64,000 bases of DNA from Minisyncoccota bacterium (GTDB lineage: Bacteria > Patescibacteriota > Minisyncoccia > 2-02-FULL-40-12 > IGHO2-01-FULL-4-A), in NCBI GenBank assembly GCA_040881175.1, contig JBBEDS010000014.1, positions 23,174 through 87,173 of the forward strand. The letters run 5' to 3'. The notes under the pieces are model-generated. The model did no database searches. It was not told the origin of the DNA and worked only from the letters and a program-made list of their open reading frames with translations. Every line of letters starts with the position of its first letter. The stretch's first letter is position 1. The position numbers and the translations under genes were made by a program. Positions 27,011-54,481 of the stretch are shown piece after piece.

Positions 27011-28378
27011 ATGACTAACGAAGAACTCTGGAAATCAGTACTCAATGAGATGGAGTTATCTCTCTCAAGAGCTAACTTTACTACCTGGTTTAAAGGTACC
27101 TCGTTATTGTCTAACAACAACGGAGCCATCCTGGTTAGCGTTCCTAATGGCTTCGTTAAAGAATGGCTGGAAAACAAGTTTGGAAAGCAGATCTGTCAGA
27201 TTATAAGAAAAGTAGATCCTGAGATAAGGGAAGTTAAATACACTGTAGGCGGCATCCGTGCTGGTCAGCCTTTGCAAAAGAAAGATCTGGTTCAATTCGC
27301 TCCCGAGAAAACAGTTGAGGACTACCAAGATACTGATATAGACAAATCAACTAATCTTAATAAGCGCTACTCCTTTGATTCTTTTATTGTAGGTTCTAAC
27401 AATGAGCTAGCTCACGCAGCCTCCATAGCTATTACCAAAAACCTAGGCAAAGTCTATAACCCTCTCTTTCTATACGGTGGGGTTGGCCTTGGAAAGACTC
27501 ATCTTCTCCAAGCTGCTGGAAATATAGTTGCTGAAACCTGGCCGGATAAGAAAATCTTGTACATCTCCTCCGAAAGACTCACGGCTGATATTGTTGAGTC
27601 TCTTAAAAACAAAACTATTGAGGATATGAAACAACGTTACTCAAAGATAGATTTATTAATTATAGACGACATTCAGTTTATAGCTGGCAAAGAAAGAACT
27701 CAGGATATATTCTTCACTACATTCAATGAGCTCTACGGCAAGAATAAACAGATAGTCCTGTCCTCAGATAGGCCTCCAAGCGCCATTCCTGCCCTTGAGG
27801 AGCGTTTACGCTCTCGATTTGAGGGTGGGATGATAGCGGACATAGGTACTCCAGATTACGAGACCCGTTTAGCTATACTTAAGCTAAAATGTAAGGAGAA
27901 GAATTTCGAGATAGATGGTAACTCTCTCTCATATATAGCCTCCAATATTCAGAAGAATATACGTGAACTAGAGGGAGCTCTTAACCGTATAATCGCTTTT
28001 GGTCAGATATATAACAAAACTCCTGATTTTAAGGAGGTTAAAAAGCTTCTAGCTGCCTATCTGAATACTCCATATAGAAAGACGACTCACCAGCTTATCT
28101 TAAAATCAGTAGCAGACTTCTATGGCGTTCCTTTAACCGACCTAGTTAAAAGGAGCCGCAAGAAAGAGATTGTTAAACCAAGGCAGATAGCAATGTTCTT
28201 GCTAAGAGAGGAGACCAAATCCTCTTTCCCTGAGATTGGATCCAAATTAGGAGGTAGAGATCACTCCACTGTAATTCATGCTTATGAGAAGATAAGGAGA
28301 GAAGAGGAGGAGAATGAGTCTACAAAACAGGAATTACTTTTGATCAAAGAAAGAATTTATCAGACATTCGATAGTTGA
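27011..28378 (+). CDS. dnaA: chromosomal replication initiator protein DnaA
   Basis: N-terminal domain I, AAA+ GGVGLGKTHLLQAAGN, sensor and C-terminal DNA-binding domain (HSTVIHAYEKI). Confidence 0.95.
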   Translation: MTNEELWKSVLNEMELSLSRANFTTWFKGTSLLSNNNGAILVSVPNGFVKEWLENKFGKQICQIIRKVDPEIREVKYTVGGIRAGQPLQKKDLVQFAPEKTVEDYQDTDIDKSTNLNKRYSFDSFIVGSNNELAHAASIAITKNLGKVYNPLFLYGGVGLGKTHLLQAAGNIVAETWPDKKILYISSERLTADIVESLKNKTIEDMKQRYSKIDLLIIDDIQFIAGKERTQDIFFTTFNELYGKNKQIVLSSDRPPSAIPALEERLRSRFEGGMIADIGTPDYETRLAILKLKCKEKNFEIDGNSLSYIASNIQKNIRELEGALNRIIAFGQIYNKTPDFKEVKKLLAAYLNTPYRKTTHQLILKSVADFYGVPLTDLVKRSRKKEIVKPRQIAMFLLREETKSSFPEIGSKLGGRDHSTVIHAYEKIRREEEENESTKQELLLIKERIYQTFDS

Positions 28379-28600
28379 TAAGTATGTGTATATACCTGTG
28401 AAATTAATGGTTATAAATTATTGATAAAAATTGGATAAGTCTAATTCTAAAAAAAATAAGATAATATTAACAAGTTTATAACAAATTAATTAACATACTT
28501 ATCTACAGCTTACTAAATAACTTCTACCGCAAAAAATATAGTTACTAATAATCTTTTACCACTTATACACACCTCTTATTATTACTAATTAATTATATAT
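28379..28600. other. putative oriC: AT-rich (about 80% AT) dnaA-dnaN intergenic region with DnaA boxes TTATCTACA, TTATACACA, TGGATAAG
   Basis: seen in sequence: 222-nt AT-rich spacer with at least 3 near-consensus DnaA boxes between dnaA and dnaN. Confidence 0.5.
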
Positions 28601-29689
28601 ATGAATATAATAATAAATCAGAAAAGATTCTTAACAGCTCTGAGGGTTGTTGAAAAAGTTGTCTCAAAAAATACTTCTTTGCCAATTCTCAACACAGTAT
28701 TACTCAAAACGGATAACGGCAGTTTAAAACTTTCCGCTACGAATCTAGAAATCGGAATTAATTATTGGATTGGAGCCAAAGTAGAAAAAGATGGAGAGGT
28801 AGCTGTTCCAGCTAAAATATTCTCAGATTTCATAAGTAATATTTCAGACGAGAAAATTAAGGTAACCTCCAATAAAAATGTGGTGTCCATAAATTCCGAG
28901 CATTATAAAACTCAAATACTGGGAATGGACACAAAAGATTTTCCGATAATTCCCAAAATAAAAAAAGATAATTCTTTCAAAATAAATACGCAGGTACTAA
29001 AAAATTCTTTAGCTAATGTATTAGATTCAACTTCTCTTTCCGAAACAAGACCAGAGCTGAGTGGGGTATATGTTAATGCTTTAAGCAATAAAATTGAATT
29101 TGCTGCGACAGATAGTTTTCGTCTTTCTGAAAAATTAATTCCGCTAAAAGAAGGTATTAGCAAATCATTTATTATTCCGAGAAATACTGTAATAGAGATA
29201 ATAAGAACAGTTGAGAATATGGATGAAGATATTAATATATCCGTCTCTGAAAATCAGATTTTTGTTCACGGACAAGACTTTGAATTGATCTCTCGCTTAA
29301 TTGATGGCCGCTACCCGGAGTACAAAAAAGTTATTCCCGATAAATTTATCTCCCTAGTCAGATTAGAAAAGTCTGAGTTTGAAAAAAATATCAGGATGGC
29401 TAGTGTATTTTCTTCAAGTATATCCGACATAAAGCTTAAAGTTTCAAAAGATACTATGGAAATATCAGCCAAGAATAGCGATAGAGGAGAGATCACCTCA
29501 CACATGAGTTGTGATCTAAAAAGCAGCCCATTTGAGATATTAGTTAACTACCACTATCTTTTAGATGGACTAAAAACAATACCGACAGGAAATGTAATTA
29601 TGGAGTTTACTGGCGATGGGAGTCCTTTAGTTATAAAACCCGAAGAGAAAAAGGATCAAACTTACGTTATTATGCCTCTTAGGAATTAG
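28601..29689 (+). CDS. dnaN: DNA polymerase III beta sliding clamp
   Basis: 362 aa, three-domain clamp, typical N-term MNIIINQKRFLTALRVVEKVVS. Confidence 0.9.
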   Translation: MNIIINQKRFLTALRVVEKVVSKNTSLPILNTVLLKTDNGSLKLSATNLEIGINYWIGAKVEKDGEVAVPAKIFSDFISNISDEKIKVTSNKNVVSINSEHYKTQILGMDTKDFPIIPKIKKDNSFKINTQVLKNSLANVLDSTSLSETRPELSGVYVNALSNKIEFAATDSFRLSEKLIPLKEGISKSFIIPRNTVIEIIRTVENMDEDINISVSENQIFVHGQDFELISRLIDGRYPEYKKVIPDKFISLVRLEKSEFEKNIRMASVFSSSISDIKLKVSKDTMEISAKNSDRGEITSHMSCDLKSSPFEILVNYHYLLDGLKTIPTGNVIMEFTGDGSPLVIKPEEKKDQTYVIMPLRN

Positions 29690-29697
29690 TAACTACC

Positions 29698-29982
29698 GTG
29701 GAAGATTTAAAAAGGAAATTAACTCAACTTAAGAGGGTTATAGCTTCTAAGGAAGAAGAAGATAAAAAACTGAGGACAGAACTTAAAGAAATAATCGAGA
29801 AGCTTTTTGACCAAGTAAAAACCCCGATGGAATTTATTCGGGGTTTTTACTTACAGGGTGACAGGCTAGTCATAAACACTAATAATAAATCTTTCGCTAA
29901 TGAACTTTTCTTAGTTAAGAACCAGTTGTTAGAAGGCCTTTGGGATAGAAAATTCGTGGTGAAAGAATTGGTTATTAAGTAA
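29698..29982 (+). CDS. DUF721/DciA-like small protein
   Basis: FIRGFYLQGDRLVINTNNKSFANELFLVKNQLLEGL matches the DUF721 motif; located after dnaN as in many bacteria. Confidence 0.5.
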   Translation: MEDLKRKLTQLKRVIASKEEEDKKLRTELKEIIEKLFDQVKTPMEFIRGFYLQGDRLVINTNNKSFANELFLVKNQLLEGLWDRKFVVKELVIK

Positions 29983-29984
29983 GA

Positions 29985-32153
29985 CTAGTTTGAAGATTGA
30001 CCTGTGCCTAAGACCCATCTCTGCACAGACTCTTCCCAGTTCTTAGATTGAGAATCTTTCCCATGATTTTCAGGTATAGGCCCTGAAGGATTATCTTTAT
30101 TTACGTAATAGAGCAGAGAGTGTATTCCGTCAGGGCCATTGTAGTTACCATTTAGCATTACCTTATCAGCGAACACAGGATTTGGCTTTATGAACTGTTC
30201 TGATGGCGTGCCAGCAAGAGCTCTCGCAATAAACTCGTGCCACATAGGGCCTGCTGCTGATAAACCGGCTCCTTGCTGAGTCATTGAGTCATTATTATTG
30301 TTCCCCGTCCAGACTCCGACTGCAAGAGATGGGGTGTAGCCTATAAGCCAACCATCTCTGTTCTCCTGAGTGGTACCTGTCTTAGCGGCTACCTGACGGT
30401 CAGCGAAGTATAAAGAGCTGTTATAGCCGAATACAGGCCCTCTGGCGTTATTATCAGACAAGACATCGGACATCAAACGAGCCAGTTGAGCATCTAAGAC
30501 TCTTTCCTCCTGGACTTTGTTTTCTTCAAGAATGGTCCCGTCTCCAGTTACAACTTTCTGAATGAATGTCTGAGGTGTTCTTATCCCGTCATTTGCTAAA
30601 ACACCATAGGCGGCTACCATGTCTACAAGACGAACCTCTCCACCACCCAAGACTAGAGACAAGCCATATCTAGGCCGGTCATTAAGGGTGGTAATGCCCA
30701 TTTTATGGGCTAGATCGATAGTACCTTCTATACCAGCCAGGTAGAGAGTTTTAACGGAAGGGACGTTTAGTGATTGAGAAAGAGCCTGACGCATTGTTAC
30801 AGGGCCTCTGAAGCGGCCATCATAGTTTTGGGGATTATAGCAATCAAGACCAGAAGGATCCTTTGTTTGAGTAGCTGAAGAAGAACACTCGGGATTAAAT
30901 TCTGTTGGCAGATCGAAAAGTATAGTCGAATCGGCAAAACCTTTTTCGAAGGCTAGGGTATAAGCAAAAGGTTTAAATGACGAACCTGGCTGACGACTTG
31001 CTGTTGCAACGTTAAAATTACCCTCAAATTTACATGTCTTTCCTGGAATGCAGCCTTCGGGTTCCGCTTCACCAGAGTAATCTTTGGAACCGACCATAGC
31101 TAGAATATAGCCGGTCTTAGGGTCGGTCGCGACCAGAGCAGCATTATTAGCCTTATACCTTTCGGTATTAATCTCCGCGTACTTCTTTACGGTTTCTTCC
31201 GCTATCTTCTGTAGCTCCGAATCCAGGGTCGTGTAAACTCTAAGGCCACCATTCTGAACCATATCCTCGCCATACTTGTTCACCAGGTACTCTCTTACCA
31301 TGATGACGAAATGAGGAGCAGGAAAGCTGATCTCTGGAGTTGTTATTTCCGGAAATTCACTCACGGCCACGTCATGCTCCTCTTGAGTTATCGTGCCTAA
31401 GTTAAGCATTCTGCCTAAAATGAGATCTCTTCTATCAATCGCCCGCGAGAGGTTATTATTAGTACCATAAGGGGAGTAATAGCTTGGCGCATTAGGTAAA
31501 GCTGCTAAAAGTGTAGCCTCAGCTATATCCAGGTCCTTAGCGGGTTTATTAAAAAATGTTTGTGCAGCAGCTTCAATGCCGTAAGCATTGGAACCATAGG
31601 GTATTTGGTTCAAGTACATCCAAAATATTTCATCTTTGCTAAATTTACGTTCGATCTGAACCGAGAGGACAGCTTCCTTAACTTTTCTAGCGATTGTCTT
31701 CTCATCTCCAAGCAGAGATTTTTTAATCAGCTGCTGAGTTATCGTAGAGCCGCCCTGAGAGGCATCTAGGTTACGCAAGTCTTTGTATAATGCGCGGAGA
31801 ATGCCCCTAAAGTCTATGCCGCCATGGTTATAGAAATCGCTGTCTTCAGCAGCGAGAGTAGCATCTTTTACTGTCTGAGGTATCTGCTCCCAAGGGATGA
31901 TAGTTCTTTTTTCTTCGCCGTGGATGTCATAAAGAAGGGATTCTCTGGTGTTGTCATAAATTTTGGTAGACTCACTGACTCGGCGAGCGGCTATAGCTGA
32001 AGGATCAGGAACTTGGCGGGCGTAGTATAGAAAAATGACCACTAAAAAAACCAAGCCGGTTACGGCTAGCAATAATAGGGTAAGGAAGAAATTCTTTAAC
32101 TGGCTGGGTTTTTTCTTCTTTTTTGATCTTTGCATGTATGCTGATTTTGCCAT
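29985..32153 (-). CDS. class A penicillin-binding protein (PBP1A: GT51 glycosyltransferase + transpeptidase)
   Basis: EDSDFYNHGGIDFRGILRA (GT51), SSFKPF (SxxK), KTGT; start moved to internal Met (MAKSAYMQRSKKKKK...TM) because track start lies 15 nt from divergent tyrS and overlaps its promoter. Confidence 0.85.
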   Translation of the reverse strand: MAKSAYMQRSKKKKKPSQLKNFFLTLLLLAVTGLVFLVVIFLYYARQVPDPSAIAARRVSESTKIYDNTRESLLYDIHGEEKRTIIPWEQIPQTVKDATLAAEDSDFYNHGGIDFRGILRALYKDLRNLDASQGGSTITQQLIKKSLLGDEKTIARKVKEAVLSVQIERKFSKDEIFWMYLNQIPYGSNAYGIEAAAQTFFNKPAKDLDIAEATLLAALPNAPSYYSPYGTNNNLSRAIDRRDLILGRMLNLGTITQEEHDVAVSEFPEITTPEISFPAPHFVIMVREYLVNKYGEDMVQNGGLRVYTTLDSELQKIAEETVKKYAEINTERYKANNAALVATDPKTGYILAMVGSKDYSGEAEPEGCIPGKTCKFEGNFNVATASRQPGSSFKPFAYTLAFEKGFADSTILFDLPTEFNPECSSSATQTKDPSGLDCYNPQNYDGRFRGPVTMRQALSQSLNVPSVKTLYLAGIEGTIDLAHKMGITTLNDRPRYGLSLVLGGGEVRLVDMVAAYGVLANDGIRTPQTFIQKVVTGDGTILEENKVQEERVLDAQLARLMSDVLSDNNARGPVFGYNSSLYFADRQVAAKTGTTQENRDGWLIGYTPSLAVGVWTGNNNNDSMTQQGAGLSAAGPMWHEFIARALAGTPSEQFIKPNPVFADKVMLNGNYNGPDGIHSLLYYVNKDNPSGPIPENHGKDSQSKNWEESVQRWVLGTGQSSN

Positions 32154-34711: not shown

Positions 34712-35101
34712 CTAACAGGGTTTGTGGAGCTCACGCTCATAATTCTTGAGCAACTCAGCTTCTGAGCTGAACTCTCTCAAATATTCCCTAGAAAGACTCT
34801 TCCACGAGCTGTCGGTGTCACAATAGTAGTACCGGGCTCTACTATTGGAGCTTGTATAGAAAATATGGCTAGATTGCTTGGATGAGGCGGTCGGGACAGA
34901 TGCGGGAGCTTTAGTAGCGGTTGGGTTGCCGAGAGACTCCCTAGATATAGGAGAGGGGGTTGCCGTTTTTTCTATCGACTCTTTTAGTGTTTGGATTATC
35001 TCCGCATGGCCTTCAACTTGGCTTGGAGTATTGGAGTTTTCAGAAATAAATATTGCGCCAAGAGTTACAAGGAAAACGGTGAATAGAACCGGTAGGCGCA
35101 T
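34712..35101 (-). CDS. secreted hypothetical protein (129 aa, signal peptide, Ser/Thr/Pro-rich)
   Basis: ORF track; N-terminal hydrophobic signal. Confidence 0.4.
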   Translation of the reverse strand: MRLPVLFTVFLVTLGAIFISENSNTPSQVEGHAEIIQTLKESIEKTATPSPISRESLGNPTATKAPASVPTASSKQSSHIFYTSSNSRARYYYCDTDSSWKSLSREYLREFSSEAELLKNYERELHKPC

Positions 35102-35104: not shown

Positions 35105-36133
35105 TTAGATCAATTTTTCTTGAGGTACGTCTTCTCTGCTGTGGCCGAGATGTTTTAGGGCCAGGTCAGTAAGCATTCTACCGCGAGATGTACGTGCAAG
35201 AAAACCTATTTGCATAAGATAGGGCTCATAAACATCCTCGATAGTTTCCTCCTCCTCTGCTATAGAAGCAGCTACCGATTTGAGACCGACAGGACCGCCC
35301 TTGAAACTCTCGGCAATTGTCTTGAGTATTTTCCGGTCCGTGGCATCAAGTCCCAGCTCATCTATGCCAAGTAAAGACAGGGCTTCAATGGCAAGGGGCG
35401 CCGTTATAAACTCAGAGTTTTTAACTTGAGCATAGTCACGCGCTCTTTTAAGAAGTCGATTGGCAATTCTAGGAGTAAAGCGGGAAGAGCTGGCCAGTTT
35501 ATCTAAGGCCTCATCATCTATCTTTACCTTAAGGAGCTTAGCAGAACGGCTCAATATTTTCTTTATTTCATCTTGACTGTAGAAGTCTAGTTTATAATGG
35601 GCTCCAAAGCGTGAACGGAAGGGATTCGATAGAAGAGATACCCTGGTAGTAGCCGCTATGAGGGTGAAGCGGGGGAGATTGACCTGAAGAGTCTTGGCCG
35701 AAGTGCCTTTGCCGATAATAATATCGAGATTATAATTCTCCATTGCTGGATAGAGTGTTTCCTCGACGGTTTTGTTCAGTCTATGGACCTCGTCTATGAA
35801 CAGGAAGTCACCATCTGAAAGACCGGTTAGAATAGAGCCTATGTCCCCAGCTTTCTCTAATGCTGCTCCTGAGGTAATTCGGATGCCTGCGCCGGACTCT
35901 TTGGCTATTAGGTATGCTAGGGTCGTTTTGCCCAGACCAGACGGCCCATGGATCAGAATATGCTCCAGAGTGTCTTCTCTTTTTTTTGAGGCCTCAATCA
36001 GTATAGACAGGTTTTTCTTTACATTTTCCTGTCCTACATAGTCGCCGAAAACAGACGGTCTTAAAGCCAGATCCAGTACTTGGTCATCTGGCTCCTGGGC
36101 AACTGGGGTCTTTTTTTTTGTTGTATCCGGCAT
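35105..36133 (-). CDS. ruvB: Holliday junction branch-migration helicase RuvB
   Basis: GPSGLGKTTLAYLIA Walker A, DEVHRL Walker B, sensor motifs. Confidence 0.95.
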   Translation of the reverse strand: MPDTTKKKTPVAQEPDDQVLDLALRPSVFGDYVGQENVKKNLSILIEASKKREDTLEHILIHGPSGLGKTTLAYLIAKESGAGIRITSGAALEKAGDIGSILTGLSDGDFLFIDEVHRLNKTVEETLYPAMENYNLDIIIGKGTSAKTLQVNLPRFTLIAATTRVSLLSNPFRSRFGAHYKLDFYSQDEIKKILSRSAKLLKVKIDDEALDKLASSSRFTPRIANRLLKRARDYAQVKNSEFITAPLAIEALSLLGIDELGLDATDRKILKTIAESFKGGPVGLKSVAASIAEEEETIEDVYEPYLMQIGFLARTSRGRMLTDLALKHLGHSREDVPQEKLI

Positions 36134-36155
36134 AAGAAGTGCTTTAAAAACTGGC

Positions 36156-36184
36156 TTGACAGATAGCTATTTTATAGATAGAAT
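36156..36184 (+). promoter_or_regulatory. sigma70-like promoter TTGACA-N17-TAGAAT pointing into the ruvB-pilB intergenic region
   Basis: seen directly at 36156-36161 and 36179-36184. Confidence 0.45.
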
Positions 36185-36190
36185 ATGAGC

Positions 36191-36400
36191 ATAGAGTCCC
36201 TGGGTTAGGGGCTTTAGTTTAAACCTTATAGTCTGTAGGCAATTGAGCTATTTGATATAATCATACGGCTCAATCGGAGTATTCTCGCAGACGGGTGTCT
36301 TGGTTCCGACTGGGATATACCTCGGTACTACTCTACCCTGGGTTTCCTTAGGTCCGGGTTTTTGCCTACAGGCTATAGGGTTTAATTTTTTTATTCTCCA
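36191..36400 (+). ncRNA. candidate structured small RNA (about 200 nt) of unknown class
   Basis: Downstream of promoter; imperfect 19/21-bp long-range inverted repeat (AACCTTATAGTCTGTAGGCAA at 36222 pairs with TTGCCTACAGGCTATAGGGTT at 36362) enclosing internal hairpins (ATTGAGC...GCTCAAT), ends in T-run TAATTTTTTTA; no CDS on this strand. Confidence 0.3.
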
Positions 36401-38061
36401 ACTACTCGTAGTACTTCGTCAATGGAAGTTATCCCCGAAATGGCTTTTATCAGGCCGTCTTGCAGCAAAGTTATCATTCCTTTCTCCTTGGCCATATCTT
36501 CTACTTCAGATATTGCCGGCGATTTTAATATCAATCTTTCCATATCCGGATCAATCTCAAAAAGTTCGTATACTCCGATGCGTCCCTTGTAGCCGGTCCC
36601 ATTGCAGTCCTCGCAGCCTTGGGGGTAATGTATCTCCATTGATTCACTCAAGTCAGTAGCCTCAACTTCTTTGGGCAGCTTAGCCAGATATTTTCTTAGC
36701 AGCTCGAGATCCGGGGCTGCTATTTTTTGTTTCTTCTTACAGTTTTCGCAAAGACGTCTGACAAGACGCTGAGCCATTGCAGCATTAAGAGCCGGAGCTA
36801 TAGTCACAGGTTTTACGTTGAAATCAATGAGTCTAGGGATGGTTCCAGCCGCGTTATTAGTGTGCAGAGTCGAGAATACCAAGTGTCCCGTCAAAGACGC
36901 CTGCATGGCGATCTCGGCTGTTTCCGCATCACGTATCTCACCGACCAATATTACATCCGGATCCTGTCTGACTATTGAACGTAGCCCATCAGCAAAAGTG
37001 TATCCGGCCCGTGCATCAACTTGCGTTTGAGCTACCCCTTCAATGTGGTATTCGATTGGATCTTCGATCGTTATTATCTTCACATCTGGGCTATTAACTT
37101 GTCGCAAGAAAGCATATAGGGTGGTTGTCTTACCAGAGCCAGTAGGGCCGGTGGTTAATATTGAGCCCGTAGTTTTTTGTAAAAGCTTTTTGATCTTGGC
37201 TAAGGTATCTCCACGCATTCCTAAATCTTCTAGCTTTTGTCGGATAGTCAACGGATCGAGAAGACGCATTACAATGTTCTCGCCATAAGCTCCGGGTAGG
37301 ACTGACACACGAACTTCAATATCTCTACCTTCTTGTCTGATCGTAAAGCGACCATCTTGGGGAACATTGTGGACGTTTATCTTTAGTCCGGACAGGAGCT
37401 TAATGCGGGAAAGAATATTCGGGTAGCCCGTTGTAGAAAAATCGACGATGTCGCTCAGCATCCCATCCAGACGGTAGCGTAGTCTAATAGCGGCCTCTTC
37501 TGGTTCAAGGTGAATATCTGATGCTCCTACCTTGAGAGCACCAGCCATGATCATGTTTAGAACCTTGGTGATTGGAAGAGATGTCAGCTGTTCTTTTAAG
37601 TCAGCGAGCCCTTCTATCTGGCCCTCGAGGTTGGCTATCTCAGATTCTTTAATGGAGACTACTCCCTCCGTGGTTTGAGAACGCTCCTTCTTGAGCTCAT
37701 ATCTTTGCCAAGCGGAAGCTAGGCTTTCGCCCGAGACTATAACAACGTCAGGGTTGTAGCCGTCTTTCCTTAATTTTTCCAAAGAGGCGGAAGTCGGATG
37801 ATTGTCAGGGTTTAAAACAGCCACCCGAATATCCTTACCTTTCTTTGATATGACCGCCATTTGACTGGCGCGAGCGTCACTCTCTTGCATAAGCAAGATA
37901 GCGTCGTTGTCTATAGGGAAAGATTTGAGGTTAAGGTAGTGAAGGCCGGCCTTTTGCGCCAAGGCCTTAGCATTATCTTCATCCTGCTGTTTTTTGATGG
38001 AAGATAGCTTCTCTTCCAGCTCTTTCTCCAGCTCAGGTTTTTTTAGTGATGTTTGAGCCAT
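36391..38061 (-). CDS. pilB: type IV pilus assembly / type II secretion ATPase PilB/GspE
   Basis: GSPII_E N-terminal domain, Walker A LTTGPTGSGKTTTLYAFL, Asp/His boxes, tetracysteine CEDC...CNGTGY zinc motif. Confidence 0.9.
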   Translation of the reverse strand: MAQTSLKKPELEKELEEKLSSIKKQQDEDNAKALAQKAGLHYLNLKSFPIDNDAILLMQESDARASQMAVISKKGKDIRVAVLNPDNHPTSASLEKLRKDGYNPDVVIVSGESLASAWQRYELKKERSQTTEGVVSIKESEIANLEGQIEGLADLKEQLTSLPITKVLNMIMAGALKVGASDIHLEPEEAAIRLRYRLDGMLSDIVDFSTTGYPNILSRIKLLSGLKINVHNVPQDGRFTIRQEGRDIEVRVSVLPGAYGENIVMRLLDPLTIRQKLEDLGMRGDTLAKIKKLLQKTTGSILTTGPTGSGKTTTLYAFLRQVNSPDVKIITIEDPIEYHIEGVAQTQVDARAGYTFADGLRSIVRQDPDVILVGEIRDAETAEIAMQASLTGHLVFSTLHTNNAAGTIPRLIDFNVKPVTIAPALNAAMAQRLVRRLCENCKKKQKIAAPDLELLRKYLAKLPKEVEATDLSESMEIHYPQGCEDCNGTGYKGRIGVYELFEIDPDMERLILKSPAISEVEDMAKEKGMITLLQDGLIKAISGITSIDEVLRVVGE

Positions 38062-40937: not shown

Positions 40938-40976
40938 AAAAACCAACCCTCGAAAAACGGGGGTTGGTTTTTTTAT
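40937..40976 (+). terminator. rho-independent terminator after tig
   Basis: AACCAACCCTCGAAAAACGGGGGTTGGTT + TTTTTTTATTT. Confidence 0.75.
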
Positions 40977-41217
40977 TTCAATTTTATGGTTACCGAATCG
41001 ACGGTTAGCTGCAGACGACAAGTGAATCACCTGGTATCAACAGTTTCTCCCTTGTAGCAATAATGAGACCGTTTTATTATAAAATAGGTCTATTAAGCGT
41101 CCTGCTAAAAGCGGGACGCAGTGCTGCTATAAGGCCACATTCGCTCCAGTAGCCTGTAACATAATTATAAACTAAATATTGACATCTGTCAAGGATAGGT
41201 TTTTTGACTCAATCTGC

Positions 41218-45161: not shown

Positions 45162-45283
45162 CCAATGCAGGTCCTGCCGTGAAAGAGGCAGGAACTTTAA
45201 AGCAGTGCGACGATCTCGCCTGTTTTTTAATCTGATAAGTTGACAGCAAGACTGCTATAAACCGGTGTGTAGATATGAATAGT

Positions 45284-45310
45284 AAAAGACCCGCAGTTTG
45301 CGGGTCTTTT
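45284..45310. terminator. bidirectional rho-independent terminator (serves minus-strand sortase operon end)
   Basis: AAAAGACCCGCAGTTTGCGGGTCTTTT. Confidence 0.7.
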
Positions 45311-45311
45311 A

Positions 45312-45929
45312 CTATTCTACGAGTTCTGCTTGAACTGCAATCCTTTTGTAGTTTGTACCAACTGGCCAGCAACTAAGCAAGACGACAGTATCTTTATCAC
45401 TCTTTTCTATCTCCTGTAGTCTCTCGTCGTTGGCGAAGGGGGAGAAGACAATAGCTTGCTTCATTGAATATACGAACCTACTGCCATCCGCGTATTCTAC
45501 GTAGAAGATATCTCCCGGTTGTAGTTTGCCCAGAAGGGCGAATACAGAACCGTAAGCTCCTTTATACCACGGATAAGCGGAGCTATGACCAAGAACTACA
45601 GATACACCGCCCTCTCCTGGTTTTGATGTATTAGAATAATGAACGGCGCCGTTCTCCAGGTTGTCGTATATTGCCTTTGTGTCGTCACCGACATTAAAAA
45701 CAATAGGAGCCCTAACGCCTAGGCTCTCTATTACGATGACAGCGTCATCCGGTAGATCTTTTTTCTCCGATTTAACCTCAGTTGTTATAAACCTGTTAAG
45801 AGAATACTGGTCCGTGCCAGTTAGTAGCCAGAACTTAACATTTGCCTCCACAAAACGGCTGTTCAAAACAGTAAATATCAAAGCAAAAGCTCCTAAAAAA
45901 ATTATTAGAAAACGGAATTTTAAATTCAT
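45312..45929 (-). CDS. sortase (transpeptidase) family protein
   Basis: N-terminal TM, catalytic His (VVLGHSSAY) and TLxTC-type Cys (VVLLSCWPVG), downstream Arg. Confidence 0.8.
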   Translation of the reverse strand: MNLKFRFLIIFLGAFALIFTVLNSRFVEANVKFWLLTGTDQYSLNRFITTEVKSEKKDLPDDAVIVIESLGVRAPIVFNVGDDTKAIYDNLENGAVHYSNTSKPGEGGVSVVLGHSSAYPWYKGAYGSVFALLGKLQPGDIFYVEYADGSRFVYSMKQAIVFSPFANDERLQEIEKSDKDTVVLLSCWPVGTNYKRIAVQAELVE

Positions 45930-46844: not shown

Positions 46845-49505
46845 TTAGCGCTGGGCAAAGTTGAATTTATCTTTATTTGAACGAAACTTTTTAACTACTG
46901 CCCATGCCTCACGTTGTCTGAATATTCCAGTTTTAGTATACCCCATATATACGAAGGTAACTAACGCACTAAGGAACAGTGAGAGCATTAAGCTGCCAGT
47001 TGTACCCGTAGATACACCAGCCACTCTGGCTATAGATGCGCCGGCTACTTGCGGGTTATTTGTCGTGGTAGATGTGCCAACATTGTTGGACACCGTTATG
47101 GGCATACTGGAGGTCGTCAGGGAGGAGTTGCTGGATCTTGCCTGAGCCACATTGGTAAATGTGGTCGTTCCAACAGGAAGCGCCGAGGATTGATTAACGG
47201 TTGCGTTAAGTTTTATGACAACCTCTTGGAATTGGAACAGGGAGCCTACGTTAAGACCGCCGCTATTAGTTATTCCGTCGGACCTTATGCTGCCGTTAAC
47301 ACTAGTTGTTCTGCTTATGTAGCTGAAACCTCCGGGCAAAAAGTCGTTAACTATTACATTATCAGCCCTTGTCGAGGAATTTGATCTAACCCTGATTACA
47401 AATTCAAGGGTGTCTCCGGGAGAGGCGGTTAAACTTGACTGCTCAACGTTGTCGCCTCGAGTAATATTTTTACCAAGTTTTTGAATAGATATCTGCGACA
47501 AAGGGTCATTGTTTGTGATTACGGTTGTTATGCTGTCTCGGGGTACATATACTATGGCCTGATCGGATACACTGGAGGTGTTAGATGAAGTGGCTCTAAA
47601 ATCTACGAAAGAGTTTGATCCGATAAAGTTTAAGAATAGCTGGTTGGGTACGGTAATTCTATACTTGATAGTCACGGAATTGCCAGGATTAATATTGCCC
47701 AAGTATATTCCTCCAGAAGATAAGATACTTCCAGAGTAAGACGATCCGTTTACAGTGGTGGAGTCATTAAAGTTTAGTCCGCTAGGCAAGAAGCTGGAAA
47801 CTCGTACGTCGGTCAAAGTAGAGTTGCCGCTTGTACCTAAGTAAGCAACCAGCTCCACGGTATCCCCAGGGAAAGCCTGTACTGTCTTGCTCTCGGAACC
47901 GCCACGACTCAAATTTCTGCCGTAGGCGTTTATATTCATAGACCTGAAGTCTCCAGTTGGAGTGGGTGTGGGATTTGGTGTCGGATTTGGTGTTGGATTC
48001 GGGGTAGGATTTGGAGTAGGTGTTGGTGACGGGTATATGCCAACTACAGTTGTATATGCTGAGACAACAAAGTTAACACAATTTCCATTGATGCACTTCG
48101 TGCCGGTCGCATTATTGGCCAGTATGGCTATTGGGGAAACGTCGTTGTTTATCCTGACCACGTATCTAAAGGTTTGAGGAGAGTTGGAATTTACAAATCT
48201 ATTTGACCAGGTGATTGTGTTTCCATTCACACTCCCGGAATTATTAAGGAAGTGGCTAAATGTCACGCCGTTCGGCAGTTGGTCTATGAGGTGGTTCAAC
48301 TCGAATGCATCCTGGTATCCTGGGACGGCAATCGTGTAGGTTATCTGATCTCCAACCAAAGCGACTGCTTTGTCGGCAGTTTTTGAGATACCACTAACAC
48401 TTACAACTGGTGTTGAGGTAGGGTTTGGAGTAGGGAATGGGGTCGGATTCGGTGTAGGGTAGGGTGTTGGGTTCGGGGTGGGTGATGAGCAATTTACGAC
48501 ATTGAAGTTTACCGTCTTGCTTATGTGGCCTATAGTAGCTGTTTTGGTCCAAGCACCAACGTCCGCTGATTTCCAAATGTATCCTTTGTCGCTCCAATAT
48601 CCGTTATTTACGAATTGGTTATAGCCAGACAACTTTTCTCCGGTAGAGCTTCCATTCCTAGTAGAAGACCAGAAGATCATCTTGCCGTTCAAGTCTGAGG
48701 ATGCATTGGAAACTGTATATGTAGATTGCGAACCAACGCAGACCGTCTGCGGATTAATCGAGAGATTAAATGAAGAGACCGTTGGTGTTGGTGTAGGAGT
48801 CGGGGTTGCTGCCGGCGGGCAGTATAGGTTAGAAGGCACGACTACCCAGACGTCATAGAGGTTTTTACTACCTCCATTTGAAATATCCCAAAGAGTAAAT
48901 CTGTAGTTCTTGCCACGATGCAACCAGGGCGTTTCGCCATCGCCGTTATTATGCAAAGCAAAAGTTTTTTCTATAAAAGTATCGGGGTCTCTGACAGTTA
49001 CCTTCGTCTTGTCTACATTTTGGGTGGTCCACTTGATAGTGGTATTGAACAAACATTGGCCAGGCAAGCGAGAGATGGAGCCGTCTTGCCAAATTTTACC
49101 GCTGGCGGAGGGAGAGGGGCAGACAATACTTTCAAGCTCAATCCAGGTATCGGAGAGCTTATCTTGCTTCCCATTCGAAACATCCCAGAGAGTAAAACGG
49201 TAGTTCTTACCAGGATGCAGCCATGGTGTTTCGCCTGTGCCATTGTTGTGCATGGCAAAAACCTTTTCTTGATTAGTGTCTGGATCTCTGACTGTGACCT
49301 TGGCTTGGTCTACATTCTGTGTGGACCAGCCTACTCTGCTGGTGTACAGACATTGATTCCCGATCTTCTCTACCAAGCTATCTTTCCATATTTGACCTGA
49401 GGGGGGTTGCGAGTTAGCAAAAACTGAACCGCCGAAAATGATTCCGGTGGTTATGACCGAGGTTACTAAGAATACTGCCAAAAAGATTCTTTTGTTCTTA
49501 TTCAT
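46845..49505 (-). CDS. large secreted surface protein (886 aa) with tandem about 95-aa N-terminal repeats, PT-rich linkers, DUF11-like repeat domains and C-terminal hydrophobic anchor
   Basis: Signal peptide; repeat unit WKDSLVEKIGNQCLY...VTVRDPDT..KVFAMHNNGTGETPWLHPGKNYRFTLWD present twice; (PTPN)n linkers; C-terminal GVSTGTTGSLMLSLFLSALVTFVYMGY + basic tail. Confidence 0.7.
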   Translation of the reverse strand: MNKNKRIFLAVFLVTSVITTGIIFGGSVFANSQPPSGQIWKDSLVEKIGNQCLYTSRVGWSTQNVDQAKVTVRDPDTNQEKVFAMHNNGTGETPWLHPGKNYRFTLWDVSNGKQDKLSDTWIELESIVCPSPSASGKIWQDGSISRLPGQCLFNTTIKWTTQNVDKTKVTVRDPDTFIEKTFALHNNGDGETPWLHRGKNYRFTLWDISNGGSKNLYDVWVVVPSNLYCPPAATPTPTPTPTVSSFNLSINPQTVCVGSQSTYTVSNASSDLNGKMIFWSSTRNGSSTGEKLSGYNQFVNNGYWSDKGYIWKSADVGAWTKTATIGHISKTVNFNVVNCSSPTPNPTPYPTPNPTPFPTPNPTSTPVVSVSGISKTADKAVALVGDQITYTIAVPGYQDAFELNHLIDQLPNGVTFSHFLNNSGSVNGNTITWSNRFVNSNSPQTFRYVVRINNDVSPIAILANNATGTKCINGNCVNFVVSAYTTVVGIYPSPTPTPNPTPNPTPNPTPNPTPTPTGDFRSMNINAYGRNLSRGGSESKTVQAFPGDTVELVAYLGTSGNSTLTDVRVSSFLPSGLNFNDSTTVNGSSYSGSILSSGGIYLGNINPGNSVTIKYRITVPNQLFLNFIGSNSFVDFRATSSNTSSVSDQAIVYVPRDSITTVITNNDPLSQISIQKLGKNITRGDNVEQSSLTASPGDTLEFVIRVRSNSSTRADNVIVNDFLPGGFSYISRTTSVNGSIRSDGITNSGGLNVGSLFQFQEVVIKLNATVNQSSALPVGTTTFTNVAQARSSNSSLTTSSMPITVSNNVGTSTTTNNPQVAGASIARVAGVSTGTTGSLMLSLFLSALVTFVYMGYTKTGIFRQREAWAVVKKFRSNKDKFNFAQR
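47955..48035. repeat. 12-nt periodic coding tandem repeat (GGATTTGGTGTC-like x about 6) encoding PNPT linker
   Basis: seen directly; second similar tract at 48421-48480. Confidence 0.6.
48840..49420. repeat. tandem about 290-nt intragenic duplication (about 80% identity) encoding the two N-terminal repeat domains of the surface protein
   Basis: protein-level duplication residues about 30-125 vs 130-222; corresponding DNA segments visibly similar. Confidence 0.5.
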
Positions 49506-49608
49506 AAGTGTTTATTGGTGAAAATAAAATAGCTTTATAAGCCATTTCGGATGGTATTATAATACCAGCATTTCTATATAAAGTCAAGAATTACGCAATT
49601 TTACCTAG

Positions 49609-49680
49609 TACCCCTGGAGGGAATCGAACCCCCATTCCTGGTTCCGAAGACCAGTGCTTTATCCTTTAAGCTACAGGGGC
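49609..49680 (-). tRNA. tRNA-Arg (anticodon TCG)
   Basis: Reverse strand: acceptor GCCCCTG/CAGGGGT, anticodon stem-loop CTGGT-CTTCGGA-ACCAG, T-loop GGTTCGATTCC. Confidence 0.8.
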
Positions 49681-49741
49681 GCTCAAAGACTGAACAAAAA
49701 TTAACAAAAATCCTGCCTTTAGGCAAGATTTTTGTCTGTCT

Positions 49742-50323
49742 TTAAGACTCCAGAATCTGTATTTTTACAGTTCTAATACCGAATTCAAGAGCACTTTCAC
49801 GATCTGGGAACCAGATATCTATCTTGTGCCAGTATCTGCGGTTCATACGGTCTTCAACAACGAAGATCTTATCACCGTAAATATCAGGAATTTTGATCTT
49901 AGTTCCGAAAGGCAAGAAGTTGGCAGCAATGATACCATCACGTACATATGTACCGCGAGCGGTAATAAACGGGGTATCGTCAGTCTGATCCGGAGTTGAG
50001 GAATAAGCGGTAGCAGGAATAGTCATCTCCCTAATGGTTATAACCTCTTTCTCCGTAGCAACCGGGGCAGTATATGGCAATATGAAGCCCTTGGCAGCTA
50101 CTATAGGGTTCAGGGTATTACCAGAAGTGCTTATCTCCGGCAAACGTAGGTCTGGGCCGACATAGCTAGCGTTGGAATCTGCCGTTTCAGAAGCATCCTT
50201 ATTAGACCCCCTAAACCAGTCAAAAAATCCGGCATTTGCATTCGATGTTGGAGCAATTTGGGCTATAATTACAAGCAGTAAAATGGCCGTAATTTGCTTA
50301 ATTTTCATAGTGTTTTTGTTCAT
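49742..50323 (-). CDS. 3D-domain (YuiC/MltA-like) cell-wall-associated protein
   Basis: Signal peptide; TAYSSTPDQTDDTPFITARGTYVRDGIIAANFLPFGTKIKIPDIYGDKIFVVEDRM matches 3D domain. Confidence 0.7.
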   Translation of the reverse strand: MNKNTMKIKQITAILLLVIIAQIAPTSNANAGFFDWFRGSNKDASETADSNASYVGPDLRLPEISTSGNTLNPIVAAKGFILPYTAPVATEKEVITIREMTIPATAYSSTPDQTDDTPFITARGTYVRDGIIAANFLPFGTKIKIPDIYGDKIFVVEDRMNRRYWHKIDIWFPDRESALEFGIRTVKIQILES

Positions 50324-50437
50324 ATTTACAATAAAAAACAGCCTATTTGGCTATTTCTAATAAAAAAGCCCGCCATAGCGGACCCATACCTTATTAACCT
50401 TATTGTGCTTCAATCATATCAGATTGAGGTTCAAAAG

Positions 50438-50947
50438 TCAACCCCCATTGGGAAGGGTCAAATCTGACTTTTTTCTGAATGGCCAGAACTTTTTTAGCAT
50501 TCTAATGCCCGGCTTAAGGGTAATAATTAAGAGAAACAGGCCTATGCTGATGTTCAGTCCGTCATAACTCCACCTTACTGGTTCATCGTCGCTTAATTTG
50601 AGCCACATTCCAAATTCGTCCATCGCTAGTCCGAAGCCGAAACCTAGTAGCATAGCTATCCAGAATTTTGCACGGGCCTGTTTAACGGCTAGGCCAAGAA
50701 AGCCAGCGATGAACAAGATAAAGAAACCATAGGTGAAGTGATGGACATGAAGGCCGGGAGACGGTTCAAGATAAATCGGTGGTATATGTCCGTAGGTGAT
50801 TAGGTAGCCTATTAGCCTGGAGCCTATAAAGGTCAGGATGAAAGAAAAGACGATAGGGAAAAGCAGAGATATGTACAAGCCAGGATCTCCGGTTTCAACC
50901 TTGCGGTGGATGCTTGATTTCATCCTGTTAACTATTGCTATAAACAT
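50438..50947 (-). CDS. hypothetical polytopic membrane protein (169 aa)
   Basis: ORF track; 4-5 hydrophobic helices. Confidence 0.45.
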   Translation of the reverse strand: MFIAIVNRMKSSIHRKVETGDPGLYISLLFPIVFSFILTFIGSRLIGYLITYGHIPPIYLEPSPGLHVHHFTYGFFILFIAGFLGLAVKQARAKFWIAMLLGFGFGLAMDEFGMWLKLSDDEPVRWSYDGLNISIGLFLLIITLKPGIRMLKKFWPFRKKSDLTLPNGG

Positions 50948-50962
50948 TTGTGCGAAAGAGAG

Positions 50963-51301
50963 CTAGACGTCCTTCCTCCTGACTTCACGCCAGTGGTAGA
51001 GGTAGACGGGAATGCCGATTATTAAGAAAGCAACTGCCTGAGCGGCATCTCTTTGTCTTTGTGAGGAGCGATATTCTTTATCTTGTTCTTCCTGATTTTT
51101 TATCTCTTCTTCTGTCTGCTCAACTACCTCGCCATCCTTATCAATCGAGGGCACGGGGCCTCGGTAGAAAACAGGAGCATCGGCCTTAGTGAAAACATAG
51201 GTCTTTAAACCCAAGTTAACTAGACTTACACCACCGATAATGACCAGTACTAATCCGACCGTGGAGAAAATATACAGATATATCATTCGTAATTTTGACA
51301 T
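50963..51301 (-). CDS. hypothetical membrane protein (112 aa, 2 TM)
   Basis: ORF track. Confidence 0.45.
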   Translation of the reverse strand: MSKLRMIYLYIFSTVGLVLVIIGGVSLVNLGLKTYVFTKADAPVFYRGPVPSIDKDGEVVEQTEEEIKNQEEQDKEYRSSQRQRDAAQAVAFLIIGIPVYLYHWREVRRKDV

Positions 51302-51346
51302 AGTGTTTTTTTACCGAAAATTAAATAATAAAAATTACTGAAATCT

Positions 51347-51421
51347 TGGAGCGGGTAACGGGATTCGAACCCGTGTTAGCTGATTGGCAACCAGCTGTAA
51401 TAGCCATTATACGATACCCGC
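51347..51421 (-). tRNA. tRNA-Gly (anticodon GCC), CCA encoded
   Basis: Reverse strand GCGGGTA...anticodon loop TTGCCAA...GGTTCGAATCC...TACCCGC-T-CCA. Confidence 0.9.
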
Positions 51422-51442
51422 AGTTTGGTCATTATCACATTT

Positions 51443-52180
51443 TTAGACCTTTTTTTCAAGACTAAAGGCGTGAGATCGGAGATGGTCCTGGTATAGTTCA
51501 ATCCACTTTAGCACACGTTCTTTTAAGGCGCGGCTGCTTACTACGACAGTACAAACTCCATAAGAAAGTCTCTTTGTAGGATGGCGACCTTTTATGTAAA
51601 TTGACTTTTTAAATCTTTCCTGTGGGATTCCGGTAGTCTTGCTCCAAAAGTTTTTTTGAACGGAGTCGACTAAGTCCGGATAAAGTAAAAGCCAGGCGAA
51701 TATTTTGTCAGACTCTATGTTTAGTACATTTTTTAAAAAGAGATAGAAGATTTTTATCATCTCCGGTTCACTATTCCCGAGTCTTACCTGACTTGATTTT
51801 TTTTGTTTCTCGCCCTCTCCCCAGTAGAGCATTAACCCGGCCAGGAATAGGGGATCGTTTTTTAGTTCTGCAAACTCTTTTATAGCAGCTTCTCGATATT
51901 CTTCGTGCTTAATTCTCCAGCGTTCTCTGTTTGCTCGGGACATTAACTCTAACTGTTTGGGGTTAGACAAAGACACCTCTTTGGACAACCGGTTTTTAAT
52001 CTCTTGAGACCAGGGTTCGTTCTTAAACCAGCCAGCAAGTGTGCTGGTAGGAATTCCCAACTCTTTGTAGATTTTTTTATAACTTGTGCCTGCTCGGCGT
52101 AATTCTGTGGCTTTTTGCCTATCTTTTCTCATAAAGTGGATATTTCCGCAAACTCTTGTATCAATATATAGCTTTATCAT
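51443..52180 (-). CDS. HTH-domain protein of unknown function (possible degenerate LAGLIDADG-like / mobile-element relic)
   Basis: Start set at MIKLYIDTR (track ORF N-terminus overlaps tRNA-Phe); N-terminal transposase/resolvase-type HTH (ELRRAGTSYKKIYKELGIPTSTLAGWF); FLAGLMLYWGEGEK motif faintly resembling LAGLIDADG. Confidence 0.45.
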   Translation of the reverse strand: MIKLYIDTRVCGNIHFMRKDRQKATELRRAGTSYKKIYKELGIPTSTLAGWFKNEPWSQEIKNRLSKEVSLSNPKQLELMSRANRERWRIKHEEYREAAIKEFAELKNDPLFLAGLMLYWGEGEKQKKSSQVRLGNSEPEMIKIFYLFLKNVLNIESDKIFAWLLLYPDLVDSVQKNFWSKTTGIPQERFKKSIYIKGRHPTKRLSYGVCTVVVSSRALKERVLKWIELYQDHLRSHAFSLEKKV

Positions 52181-52223
52181 AACACGGGGTTCGGTTTTTG
52201 TGGTTAAAGCTGTGGATAATACA

Positions 52224-52245
52224 AAACGGCCTTTAGGCCGTTTTG
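52224..52245. terminator. perfect hairpin CAAAACGGCC-TTTA-GGCCGTTTTG between HTH gene and tRNA-Phe
   Basis: seen directly. Confidence 0.45.
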
Positions 52246-52257
52246 TATTATAACGTG

Positions 52258-52329
52258 TGCCGCGGGGGTGAATCGAACACCCGACGCCATCCTCTTCAGG
52301 GATGCGCTCTACCACTGAGCTACCGCGGC
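52258..52329 (-). tRNA. tRNA-Phe (anticodon GAA)
   Basis: Reverse strand GCCGCGG-TA-GCTCAGTGGTAGAGC...CTGAAGA...GGTGTTCGATTCACC...CCGCGGC-A. Confidence 0.9.
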
Positions 52330-52440
52330 TTAATTGTTAATCTAAAAATTATATCAGAATTGATTGACTTTTCAATGGACAGGGGCATATAATGCGGGCA
52401 AATAAGATGCTTAAAATATTCAGCTAAAGCGAGGTGGCAA

Positions 52441-53055
52441 ATGGGTAGACGGAGAAAAAATAACCCTGAACGTATCGCTGAGGAAGGGCTAATCCTACGT
52501 TGCCAGAGGGGTGACGAAGACGCCTTTGCTGAGCTTGTTGAGCGATACAGCTCTAAAGTAACCGCAACCGTGCGAGGTATTATCAGGAGATCTAATGACG
52601 TAGAAGACCTTGTGCAGCAGGTATTTACTAAAGCGTGTCTCTCTATTAAGCGTTTCAGGCTCGACTCCTCGTTTGCTACTTGGATACACAGGATAACGGT
52701 CAACGAGTGTTACGACCATCTGCGAAAAAAGAAAGTTCGTAAGCTAACTTATGAGTGTGATCTCGCCGAAGATGATGCGAGAACAGTTGATTGCTTTCCT
52801 GATAGTAGTCCATCAGTTGATGCCCGTATGAGAAACCACAGGTACGTAGCTAGATTGTTATCAAGGGTATCTGCAGAAGACCGCGGCCTCCTAATTCAAA
52901 AAGAAGTCGAGGGCTTCTCAATAGAGGAGCTGTCCGGCATGACCGGCCTAAAAGAGAATACTATCAAGGTCAGATTATTCCGTGCCCGCCAGAAGATGAT
53001 AAAAGCGGCCGCCGGAAGAAATGTATACACGGGCTGTCTTGCAGCCTGCGCCTAA
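52441..53055 (+). CDS. ECF-type RNA polymerase sigma-70 factor
   Basis: Region 2 (EDLVQQVFTKA...FATWIHRITVNECYDHLRKK) and region 4 HTH (IEELSGMTGLKENTIKVRLFRARQKM); GC about 50%, above local 40%. Confidence 0.8.
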   Translation: MGRRRKNNPERIAEEGLILRCQRGDEDAFAELVERYSSKVTATVRGIIRRSNDVEDLVQQVFTKACLSIKRFRLDSSFATWIHRITVNECYDHLRKKKVRKLTYECDLAEDDARTVDCFPDSSPSVDARMRNHRYVARLLSRVSAEDRGLLIQKEVEGFSIEELSGMTGLKENTIKVRLFRARQKMIKAAAGRNVYTGCLAACA

Positions 53056-53060
53056 GATTC

Positions 53061-53083
53061 GCCAGCCAAAAGGCTGGTTTTTT
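53061..53083 (+). terminator. rho-independent terminator after sigma factor
   Basis: GCCAGCCAAAAGGCTGGTTTTTT. Confidence 0.65.
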
Positions 53084-53084
53084 G

Positions 53085-53156
53085 TGGGCGGTATAGGATT
53101 CGAACCTATGGCCCTCTCAACGTCAATGAGATGCTCTACCACTGAGCTAACCGCCC
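53085..53156 (-). tRNA. tRNA-Val (anticodon GAC)
   Basis: Reverse strand GGGCGGT-TA-GCTCAGTGGTAGAGC-A-TCTCA-TTGACGT-TGAGA...GGTTCGAATCC...ACCGCCC. Confidence 0.9.
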
Positions 53157-53175
53157 GGGCACTACCTAGTAAATG

Positions 53176-53259: not shown

Positions 53260-53270
53260 CCATGCCGAAT

Positions 53271-54475: not shown

Positions 54476-54481
54476 TATGTT

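Follow-up and report, generated by a model that had tools for sequence, protein, structure and literature searches.

What does the DNA that separates ruvB from the adjacent pilB-like gene encode? In the window, i.e., the entire 64-kb stretch of DNA that was analysed, a strong promoter points from the ruvB side into this intergenic region, and a sequence-only reading had proposed that it drives transcription of a highly structured, non-coding RNA of ~200 nt. Based on a conserved promoter, covariation and strand preference, our analysis supports this proposal; window positions 36156-36396 (+) almost certainly constitute an independent gene for a structured non-coding RNA of ~170-205 nt. The RNA appears to represent an undescribed family that is widespread in Paceibacteria-type CPR bacteria, and this assignment is well supported by the sequence comparisons described below.

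Organization of the RNA gene and its predicted fold

The predicted sigma-70 promoter spans positions 36156-36184 (+) and consists of a -35 box, TTGACA (36156-36161), a 17-nt spacer and a -10 box, TAGAAT (36179-36184). This near-consensus promoter, TTGACA-N17-TAGAAT, lies where the sequence-only reading had located it and agrees with the consensus at 11 of 12 positions. Sites of the form TTGACA-N16-18-TANAAT occur three times in the 64-kb window, with 0.15 expected. Transcription is predicted to start near position 36191, and directly 3′ of this point the MFE fold contains a GC-rich 5′-terminal hairpin followed by U residues, P0 (36192-36216, +). At the opposite end, seven T residues (36386-36392), the T-run noted previously, abut the 3′ side of the closing helix P1. 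The corresponding U-run (TTTTTTTATTC region, 36386-36396, +), located directly 3′ of P1, is the presumed intrinsic termination point, and this tail of the RNA overlaps the stop codon of pilB (36391-36393, - strand).

The identity of both flanking genes, as previously assigned, was confirmed by Pfam. The ruvB gene (35105-36133, -; RuvB_N, AAA_lid_4 and RuvB_C) is divergent from the RNA, and 23 nt separate its ATG from the -35 box of the RNA promoter. On the other side, the gene located at 36391-38061 (-) encodes a PilB-like ATPase of the T2SSE family with an MshEN N-domain (Pfam T2SSE, 1.3e-122; MshEN, 4.7e-6) and is convergent with the RNA. Further out, Pfam identified ruvC, yebC, nusA and tig. 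A 129-aa ORF without a Pfam match (34712-35101, -) lies between ruvB and yebC; it is kept at the same position, with 38-45% identity, in some relatives (loci L001, L005, L008 and L024).

The earlier statement that the intergenic region holds no plus-strand CDS also stands. The sole plus-strand ORF that overlaps the region is 119 aa long, begins with TTG, extends from 36300 to 36659 and is antisense within pilB, and the predicted transcript contains no AUG.

The structural core of the locus is the inverted repeat 36222-36242/36362-36382, reported previously as a 19/21-bp match. We found the two mismatches in 21 positions to be G-U pairs on the plus strand, and no such match was recovered in 100 shuffles. 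The full closing helix P1, formed by 36219-36242 and 36362-36385, has 24 bp, and 119 nt lie inside it, where ~118 nt with internal hairpins had been estimated; these hairpins are P2, P3 and P4. Folding of 36190-36395 gave -85.0 kcal/mol for the plus strand (z = -7.2; 0 of 200 shuffles as good) and -62.7 kcal/mol for the minus strand.

In the 5′ strand of P1 (36219-36242, +), the lower 14 bp are variable in sequence yet remain paired, while the sequence itself is conserved in the top 10 bp (CUGUAGGCAA). The 3′ strand (UUGCCUACAG..., 36362-36385, +) is defined by the MFE fold, the inverted repeat and covariation. Immediately inside P1, the P2 hairpin (36243-36273, +) has a 7-bp base formed by 36243-36249 and 36267-36273 and a variable tip. 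The most conserved arm is P3 (36276-36334, +), which begins with a basal helix, GGAGUA/UACUCU, and continues through an internal loop, a conserved box and a further helix to its apical loop. The pair at the base of P3, G36276-U36334, is near-invariant. The GA(C)GG box (36290-36294, +) pairs with CCUC (36320-36323) and leaves its pyrimidine bulged, and the segments UUGG (36300-36303) and CUGG (36310-36313), on the same strand, form a tandem G-U that terminates the helix beside the apical loop. That loop, UUCCGA (36304-36309, +), is of the UNCG type. None of the K-turn, loop E and T-loop motifs fitted P3 on inspection by eye. The last hairpin, P4 (36337-36358, +), is variable and consists of 9 bp and the loop CCUU.

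Covariation, strand and family architecture

The fold was evaluated on two alignments: A1, a MAFFT alignment of 26 sequences, and A3, in which 66 distinct sequences were fitted to the covariance model R1. In A1, strong sequence-conserved blocks alternate with compensatory variation, and RNAalifold applied to this alignment returned the long closing helix and the central arm, with compensatory changes in 34 of the 46 predicted pairs. The four-helix model, in which P1 closes a junction with P2, P3 and P4, combines the RNAalifold result with two alignment-supported hairpins. For this model, 88.8% of the cells are paired in A1 (best slid control, 52.7%) and 93.1% in A3 (best slid control, 50.6%), while compensatory changes were found in 42 and 48 of the 58 pairs, respectively, and 0 of 500 shuffles was as good with either alignment. 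Being fitted to R1, alignment A3 is biased towards the structure of that model; the independent MAFFT alignment A1 agrees with it. The check on orthologue covariation suggested by the sequence-only reading hence speaks for a fold conserved in related genomes, and these comparisons demonstrate, at the level of sequence, that the fold is under purifying selection.

Considering the individual helices, compensatory changes affect 21 of the 24 pairs of P1, in which 94.9% of the cells are paired, and, in the model-fitted alignment, all pairs of P2 (7/7) and P4 (9/9). Helices 3 and 4 of P3 are 97% paired. In a mutual-information scan, the top-ranking pairs were the helix pairs and, additionally, the pair that closes the P3 loop (U-A in 49 sequences and C-G in 11); this covariation of the closing pair indicates that the loop is a UNCG-type tetraloop. 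The same scan revealed no pseudoknot or loop-loop covariation.

Two lines of evidence bear on the strand. The G-U pairs of P3, i.e., the pair at its base and the tandem U-G/G-U beside the loop, are near-invariant (63-65 of 66 sequences) and would become A-C mismatches if read on the other strand. Additionally, the window, which is among the sequences used to build R1, scores 173.6 bits in the sense and 40.1 bits in the antisense orientation, and the scores across members are 100-185 and 16-50 bits, respectively. Together, the G-U pairs and the sense-strand bit scores indicate that the functional molecule would be an RNA transcribed from the plus strand, divergent from ruvB.

Members of the family are 143-189 nt long, with a P1 of 18-24 bp or more, and occur in three forms. 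The 4-way form (P1-P4, 165-189 nt) is that of the window and of most relatives. A 3-way form of ~143 nt that lacks P2 characterizes a deeper group, which includes loci L039-L042, L033 (Ca. Microsyncoccus archaeolyticus) and metagenome loci such as L102 and L117. In the rod form (L043, L060 and L062), P4 is reduced to an unpaired 3′ bulge and the tip of P3 is extended. Since P2 is absent from the 3-way and rod variants, it is dispensable; overall, P2 and P4 vary or can be lost, and conservation does not extend to the junction nucleotides.

Four elements are conserved in both the 4-way and 3-way forms: a long P1 whose top 10 bp read cuGnaGGcaa/uugCCunCaG, the basal G-U pair of P3, a GA(Y)GG/CCUC box in which a pyrimidine is bulged, and the YUGG/CUGG segment with the tandem G-U. 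The rod form, based on folds compared by eye, keeps the long P1 and a CUGG/CUGG tandem G-U, and its GAUG box is only loosely similar. The tip of P3 is, across the family, either a structural tetraloop or an inserted helix.

Outside this core, a P0-like hairpin and U-run of differing sequence follow the -10 box in most close relatives (L001, L002, L004, L006, L010, L012, L020, L023, L025, L027 and others) and are absent in the 3-way and rod variants. The position of this hairpin is unchanged even in L007 and L026, where an insertion of 50-85 nt precedes P1. The terminator-like P0 could stabilise the 5′ end or act as an early attenuator.

Distribution, genomic context and comparison with known RNAs

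The closest relatives of the window's RuvB, with up to 83% identity, are encoded in MAGs of Candidatus Paceibacteria, Yanofskybacteria, Azambacteria, Sungbacteria, Minisyncoccia and "Patescibacteria group", which places the window in a CPR bacterium. Using nhmmer, we found the element just upstream of ruvB, on the opposite strand, in the genomes of 26 relatives. The covariance model R1 recognized 30 strong and ~8 weaker members among 80 genome loci, and a scan of metagenome contigs with a pattern derived from P3 yielded 67 loci, 60 of which are members by R1. The remaining seven pattern matches (L098, L100, L122, L125, L129, L136 and L143), which are GC-rich and not R1 members, were attributed to chance. 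A scan of viral contigs gave a single pattern match (L081), which R1 does not confirm. The pilB-ruvB spacer of L047 was not counted either, as it has only a weak stem and a U-run (z = -2.1), without the P3 motifs. Altogether, ~98 loci of Paceibacteria/Yanofskybacteria-type CPR bacteria carry the RNA element in the same strand orientation as in the window and with a TTGACA-N17-TAnAAT promoter. This upstream sequence, with one further conserved base (CTTGACA-N17-TAnAAT), is located at a fixed distance from the RNA in nearly all related loci. At the 3′ end, P1 followed by a T-run, or a separate hairpin and T-run, is found in many, not all, relatives (e.g., L040, L033 and L039).

A long inverted repeat with AT-rich ends might also be a DNA-level or mobile element, such as a MITE- or REP-like repeat, a cruciform or a recombination site, and the sequence-only reading had named a dispersed repeat present in many copies as the finding that would count against an RNA. 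The element is present in one copy in the 64-kb window and one copy per examined locus, where its syntenic position is kept, and it is not of the REP/MITE type. Moreover, its mismatches are G-U on one strand only, its inner helices covary and its promoter is conserved. This explanation is effectively refuted, and we assign it a negligible probability.

The RNA has a persistent genomic neighbourhood. Among the loci with sufficient flanking sequence, 84 of 91 have a convergent PilB-like gene no more than 300 nt from the 3′ end of the RNA, and 76 of 86 have a divergent ruvB within the same distance of its 5′ end. The adjacency of pilB may reflect a cis or local role. Placed on the opposite strand between the two genes in most loci, the RNA could regulate its neighbours, either as a cis-antisense transcript to pilB-ruvB read-through or to the ruvB 5′ UTR, acting via transcriptional interference or duplex formation, or, read from the minus strand, as a structured ruvB leader. 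With the -35 box 23 nt from the ruvB ATG, minus-strand transcripts entering ruvB from upstream would have to cross the RNA, and a weak promoter-like site is present on the minus strand (36422-36393). Nevertheless, the structure is selected on the plus strand, as seen in the G-U pairs and the sense-strand bit scores, and a covarying multi-helix fold is not needed for simple antisense action.

The exceptional loci bear on the same point. One or both of ruvB and pilB are missing beside the RNA in L083, L103, L111/L120, L112 and L142, and ruvB is missing from this position in all six of them. In L083, L103 and L111/L120, an oxidoreductase or radical-SAM gene takes the place of ruvB on the 5′ side. 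L103 and L083 share the same pilB and oxidoreductase neighbours, with the orientation of the RNA relative to both genes reversed, so that in L103 pilB lies upstream of the RNA on the same strand. In L142, neither pilB nor ruvB is found nearby, and this locus is truncated on its 5′ side. Except for this truncation in L142, the RNA promoter and T-run are kept in every exceptional locus examined in full. The changes of neighbour and the reversed orientation, with the RNA keeping its own promoter and terminator, argue against an obligatory cis or antisense role and in favour of a product that acts in trans, and we consider the regulation of the adjoining genes a very unlikely explanation. A riboswitch or minus-strand leader of ruvB, in particular, was rejected because the sense strand of the RNA is opposite to ruvB and ruvB is missing beside the RNA in six loci.

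Two further observations were made in these loci. In L083 (115-2598) and L120 (6518-9442), the PilB-like gene reads as one ORF of 827 or 974 aa carrying two T2SSE modules in tandem, which would be a fused double ATPase. In L142 (1-946), the RNA immediately precedes, in the same orientation, a gene for ribosomal protein L25/Ctc, with dnaX 3 kb further on.

No known family accounts for the RNA. The Rfam search recommended by the sequence-only reading, with 6S and SRP RNA among the families to be checked, gave no family match: with Rfam 15 (4227 families), nothing in the RNA region reached the gathering score in a scan of the whole window, and no relevant match, with 6S, SRP, 5S, Y and RNase P RNAs included, was found in the 351-nt region at E≤10 with permissive filters. 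Five loci with variant forms also gave no match at E≤1. Below threshold, only irrelevant matches were obtained, to snoR8a across the promoter and to anti-hemB across the 3′ stem. ARAGORN found no tRNA or tmRNA in 36000-36500; together with the Rfam results, this agrees with the previous failure to match the sequence by eye to RNase P, tmRNA or SRP RNA. Positions 36232-36261 are 67% similar to the complement of tRNA D-arms, a resemblance that we attribute to chance. Our searches of the open-access full-text literature recovered no account of this RNA or of any lineage-specific structured RNA of CPR/Patescibacteria, and a paper on Paceibacteria metatranscriptomes does not mention non-coding RNAs.

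The resemblance to 6S and SRP RNAs proposed earlier holds for the size and the long terminal helix; it does not extend to the internal hallmarks, which are absent, or to any covariance-model match. With 6S RNA (SsrS; RF00013), the RNA shares a length of ~150-200 nt, termini that pair to form a long closing stem, an independent gene behind a strong promoter and a presumed mode of action by protein binding rather than base pairing. Sequence conservation among 6S RNAs is low, and in some of them the bubble strands carry hairpins. Several features would suit a highly diverged lineage 6S RNA that binds the sigma-70 holoenzyme as an open-promoter mimic and templates short product RNAs: members are 143-189 nt long with their ends paired in a long stem, the promoter is of a strong constitutive type, the gene is single-copy in the window, and no other 6S RNA was detected in the 64 kb. 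However, none of the three architectures matches 6S in Rfam, even at E≤10 with lax filters. Instead of the large two-sided central bubble of 6S RNA, the family has a tight 4-way junction, and in the 3-way and rod forms the 5′ junction strand between P1 and P3 measures only 0-2 nt. The basal P3 helix covaries, which indicates that it is paired in the functional state, and the distal helix, ~13 bp and a tetraloop, is too short for a 6S RNA. The sequence-conserved helical motifs, GA(Y)GG/CCUC and the tandem G-U, are a further difference. We therefore give the 6S interpretation only a slim chance.

Bacterial SRP RNA (4.5S/ffs) is likewise a stable RNA with paired ends, dominated by a hairpin as in the rod variant, with conserved helical features that resemble a protein site. 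The hallmark of SRP RNAs is helix 8, which is capped by a GNAR tetraloop and contains conserved loops, symmetric as well as asymmetric. In the present family, in contrast, the apical loop is UUYCGR, of the UNCG type with a covarying U-A/C-G closing pair; the symmetric and asymmetric loops of helix 8 are absent, the only nearby irregularities being a 1-nt bulge and a 1x2 loop; and most members have a multi-branch junction. Identity with SRP RNA was rejected, given the absence of these defining features and of a covariance-model match.

Y RNAs (YrlA; Ro-associated) also have a long terminal stem, a U-rich 3′ end and extra modules on the stem. They are protein scaffolds with a tRNA-like module, which is absent here (ARAGORN was negative and no T-loops were seen), and no Rfam match was obtained, so this identification was rejected. 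A Ro/Rsr gene was not noticed in the vicinity either. 5S rRNA, considered because the RNA of L142 adjoins the L25 gene, was rejected in the absence of a 5S_rRNA match in Rfam at E≤10, and a retron ncRNA (msr-msd), in which a reverse transcriptase gene on the same strand would come after the closing inverted repeat, was rejected because the downstream gene is the convergent pilB and no gene follows on the same strand. Further parallels are the raiA motif RNA and OLE, which are also covariation-defined, lineage-restricted, multi-helix, independently transcribed orphan ncRNAs; the present RNA differs from both in its CPR host clade and its architecture and shows no homology to them (no Rfam match). 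The window carries the features by which we delimit the new family: besides the consensus promoter and the long P1, its P3 contains both the GA(Y)GG/CCUC box and the tandem G-U of YUGG/CUGG.

Candidate mode of action and other features of the window

We propose, with a probability of about 55%, that the product belongs to a new family and acts in trans as a stable scaffold or protein-binding RNA. This reading is favoured because the invariant features are helical, no conserved single-stranded seed is present and no gene lies downstream on the same strand. Tandem G-U pairs and bulged helices are typical protein-recognition or metal-binding features. In the proposed mechanism, recognition would take place at the conserved helical features: the upper 10 bp of P1, the basal G-U pair of P3, the GA(Y)GG/CCUC box with its bulge, and the tandem G-U beside the UNCG loop. 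The RNA would serve in trans as the docking site or scaffold of a conserved protein, forming an RNP that might work like those of SRP, 6S or Y RNA while being none of these. P1 would sequester both ends of the RNA, providing end protection and a terminator stem, most likely through its lower 14 bp. We infer the protein-binding component of this proposal solely from the location of the conservation, and we consider that none of the alternatives explains the data better.

The lower part of P1 may have a second use. Belonging to an uninterrupted duplex of at least 24 bp, it may double as a processing stalk for RNase III, and the whole RNA could be regarded as an RNase III precursor in which the P1 duplex is cut and a smaller mature RNA, or the dsRNA stalk itself, is active. 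The lower 14 bp vary yet stay paired, while the top 10 bp are conserved in sequence; a variable-but-paired stalk is typical of the processing stalks that flank rRNAs. This idea follows purely from geometry and is compatible with, rather than exclusive of, protein binding; in addition, P1 and the U-run look like a terminator in many members. As the principal explanation, we consider it doubtful.

A different function would be suggested if the active part of the RNA were unpaired. The internal loop of P3 (UUYUCGCA/GGUAU) is well conserved in the closest relatives, and it could be a base-pairing seed or a ligand pocket instead. The RNA would then be a trans base-pairing sRNA or a ligand sensor, with the P3 internal loop or the P4 loop as its active part and the helices as a scaffold, and its 3′ end, a stem with a U-tail, is like that of many sRNAs. 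Nevertheless, the loop sequences are not conserved family-wide, where the consensus reads 'n', and the nucleotides that are invariant across the family are base-paired. The lack of pseudoknot or loop-loop covariation and of a same-strand downstream gene for riboswitch control also counts against this possibility, which we regard as unlikely.

A more specific version of the protein-binding proposal would make the RNA a subunit of a housekeeping RNP of Paceibacteria-type CPR bacteria that is tied to the adjoining hexameric ATPases. In one form, the branched RNA would dock on, or regulate, the PilB-like T2SSE ATPase; in the other, the four-way junction would be a Holliday-junction mimic for the RuvB machinery. 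We mention this version as a speculative and quite improbable one.

The CPR/Patescibacteria, whose genomes are tiny and streamlined, account for much of bacterial diversity. As it has been kept in a broad range of sampled Paceibacteria-type lineages, the RNA is a good candidate for a core cellular component that has escaped recognition, and the function of the family is probably a core one. For Ca. Yanofskyibacterium and Ca. Microsyncoccus, both enrichment cultures and metatranscriptomes are available (PMC10936435), and the RNA is present in the Microsyncoccus genome (L033, 2807-2949). The RNA thus offers an experimentally tractable handle, and model R1 could be used to annotate the family in thousands of MAGs.

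Several other features of the window were recorded. A second promoter-terminator unit without an ORF (40945-41192, -) is located between tig and the next plus-strand ORF. It comprises a TTGACA-N17-TATAAT promoter (41192-41164), followed by ~210 nt up to a strong intrinsic terminator (40945-40985), and its fold has -70.4 kcal/mol (z = -4.6), with Rfam matches over the terminator only; this unit may represent a further small RNA that lacks annotation. Positions 45277-45317 form a hairpin of 19 perfect base pairs and a 3-nt loop (GAATAGTAAAAGACCCGCA/TGCGGGTCTTTTACTATTC), which is probably a terminator between convergent genes. Two G-rich blocks of tandem repeats with a 12-nt period (GGATTTGGTGTT-like), located at 47958-48032 and 48408-48482 and 414 nt apart, probably belong to a repetitive coding segment. 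Seven tRNA genes are grouped within 5 kb (49608-54647, -). Finally, the G+C content is 0.33 at 28001-30000 and 0.50-0.53 at 56001-60000, compared with ~0.43 elsewhere in the window.
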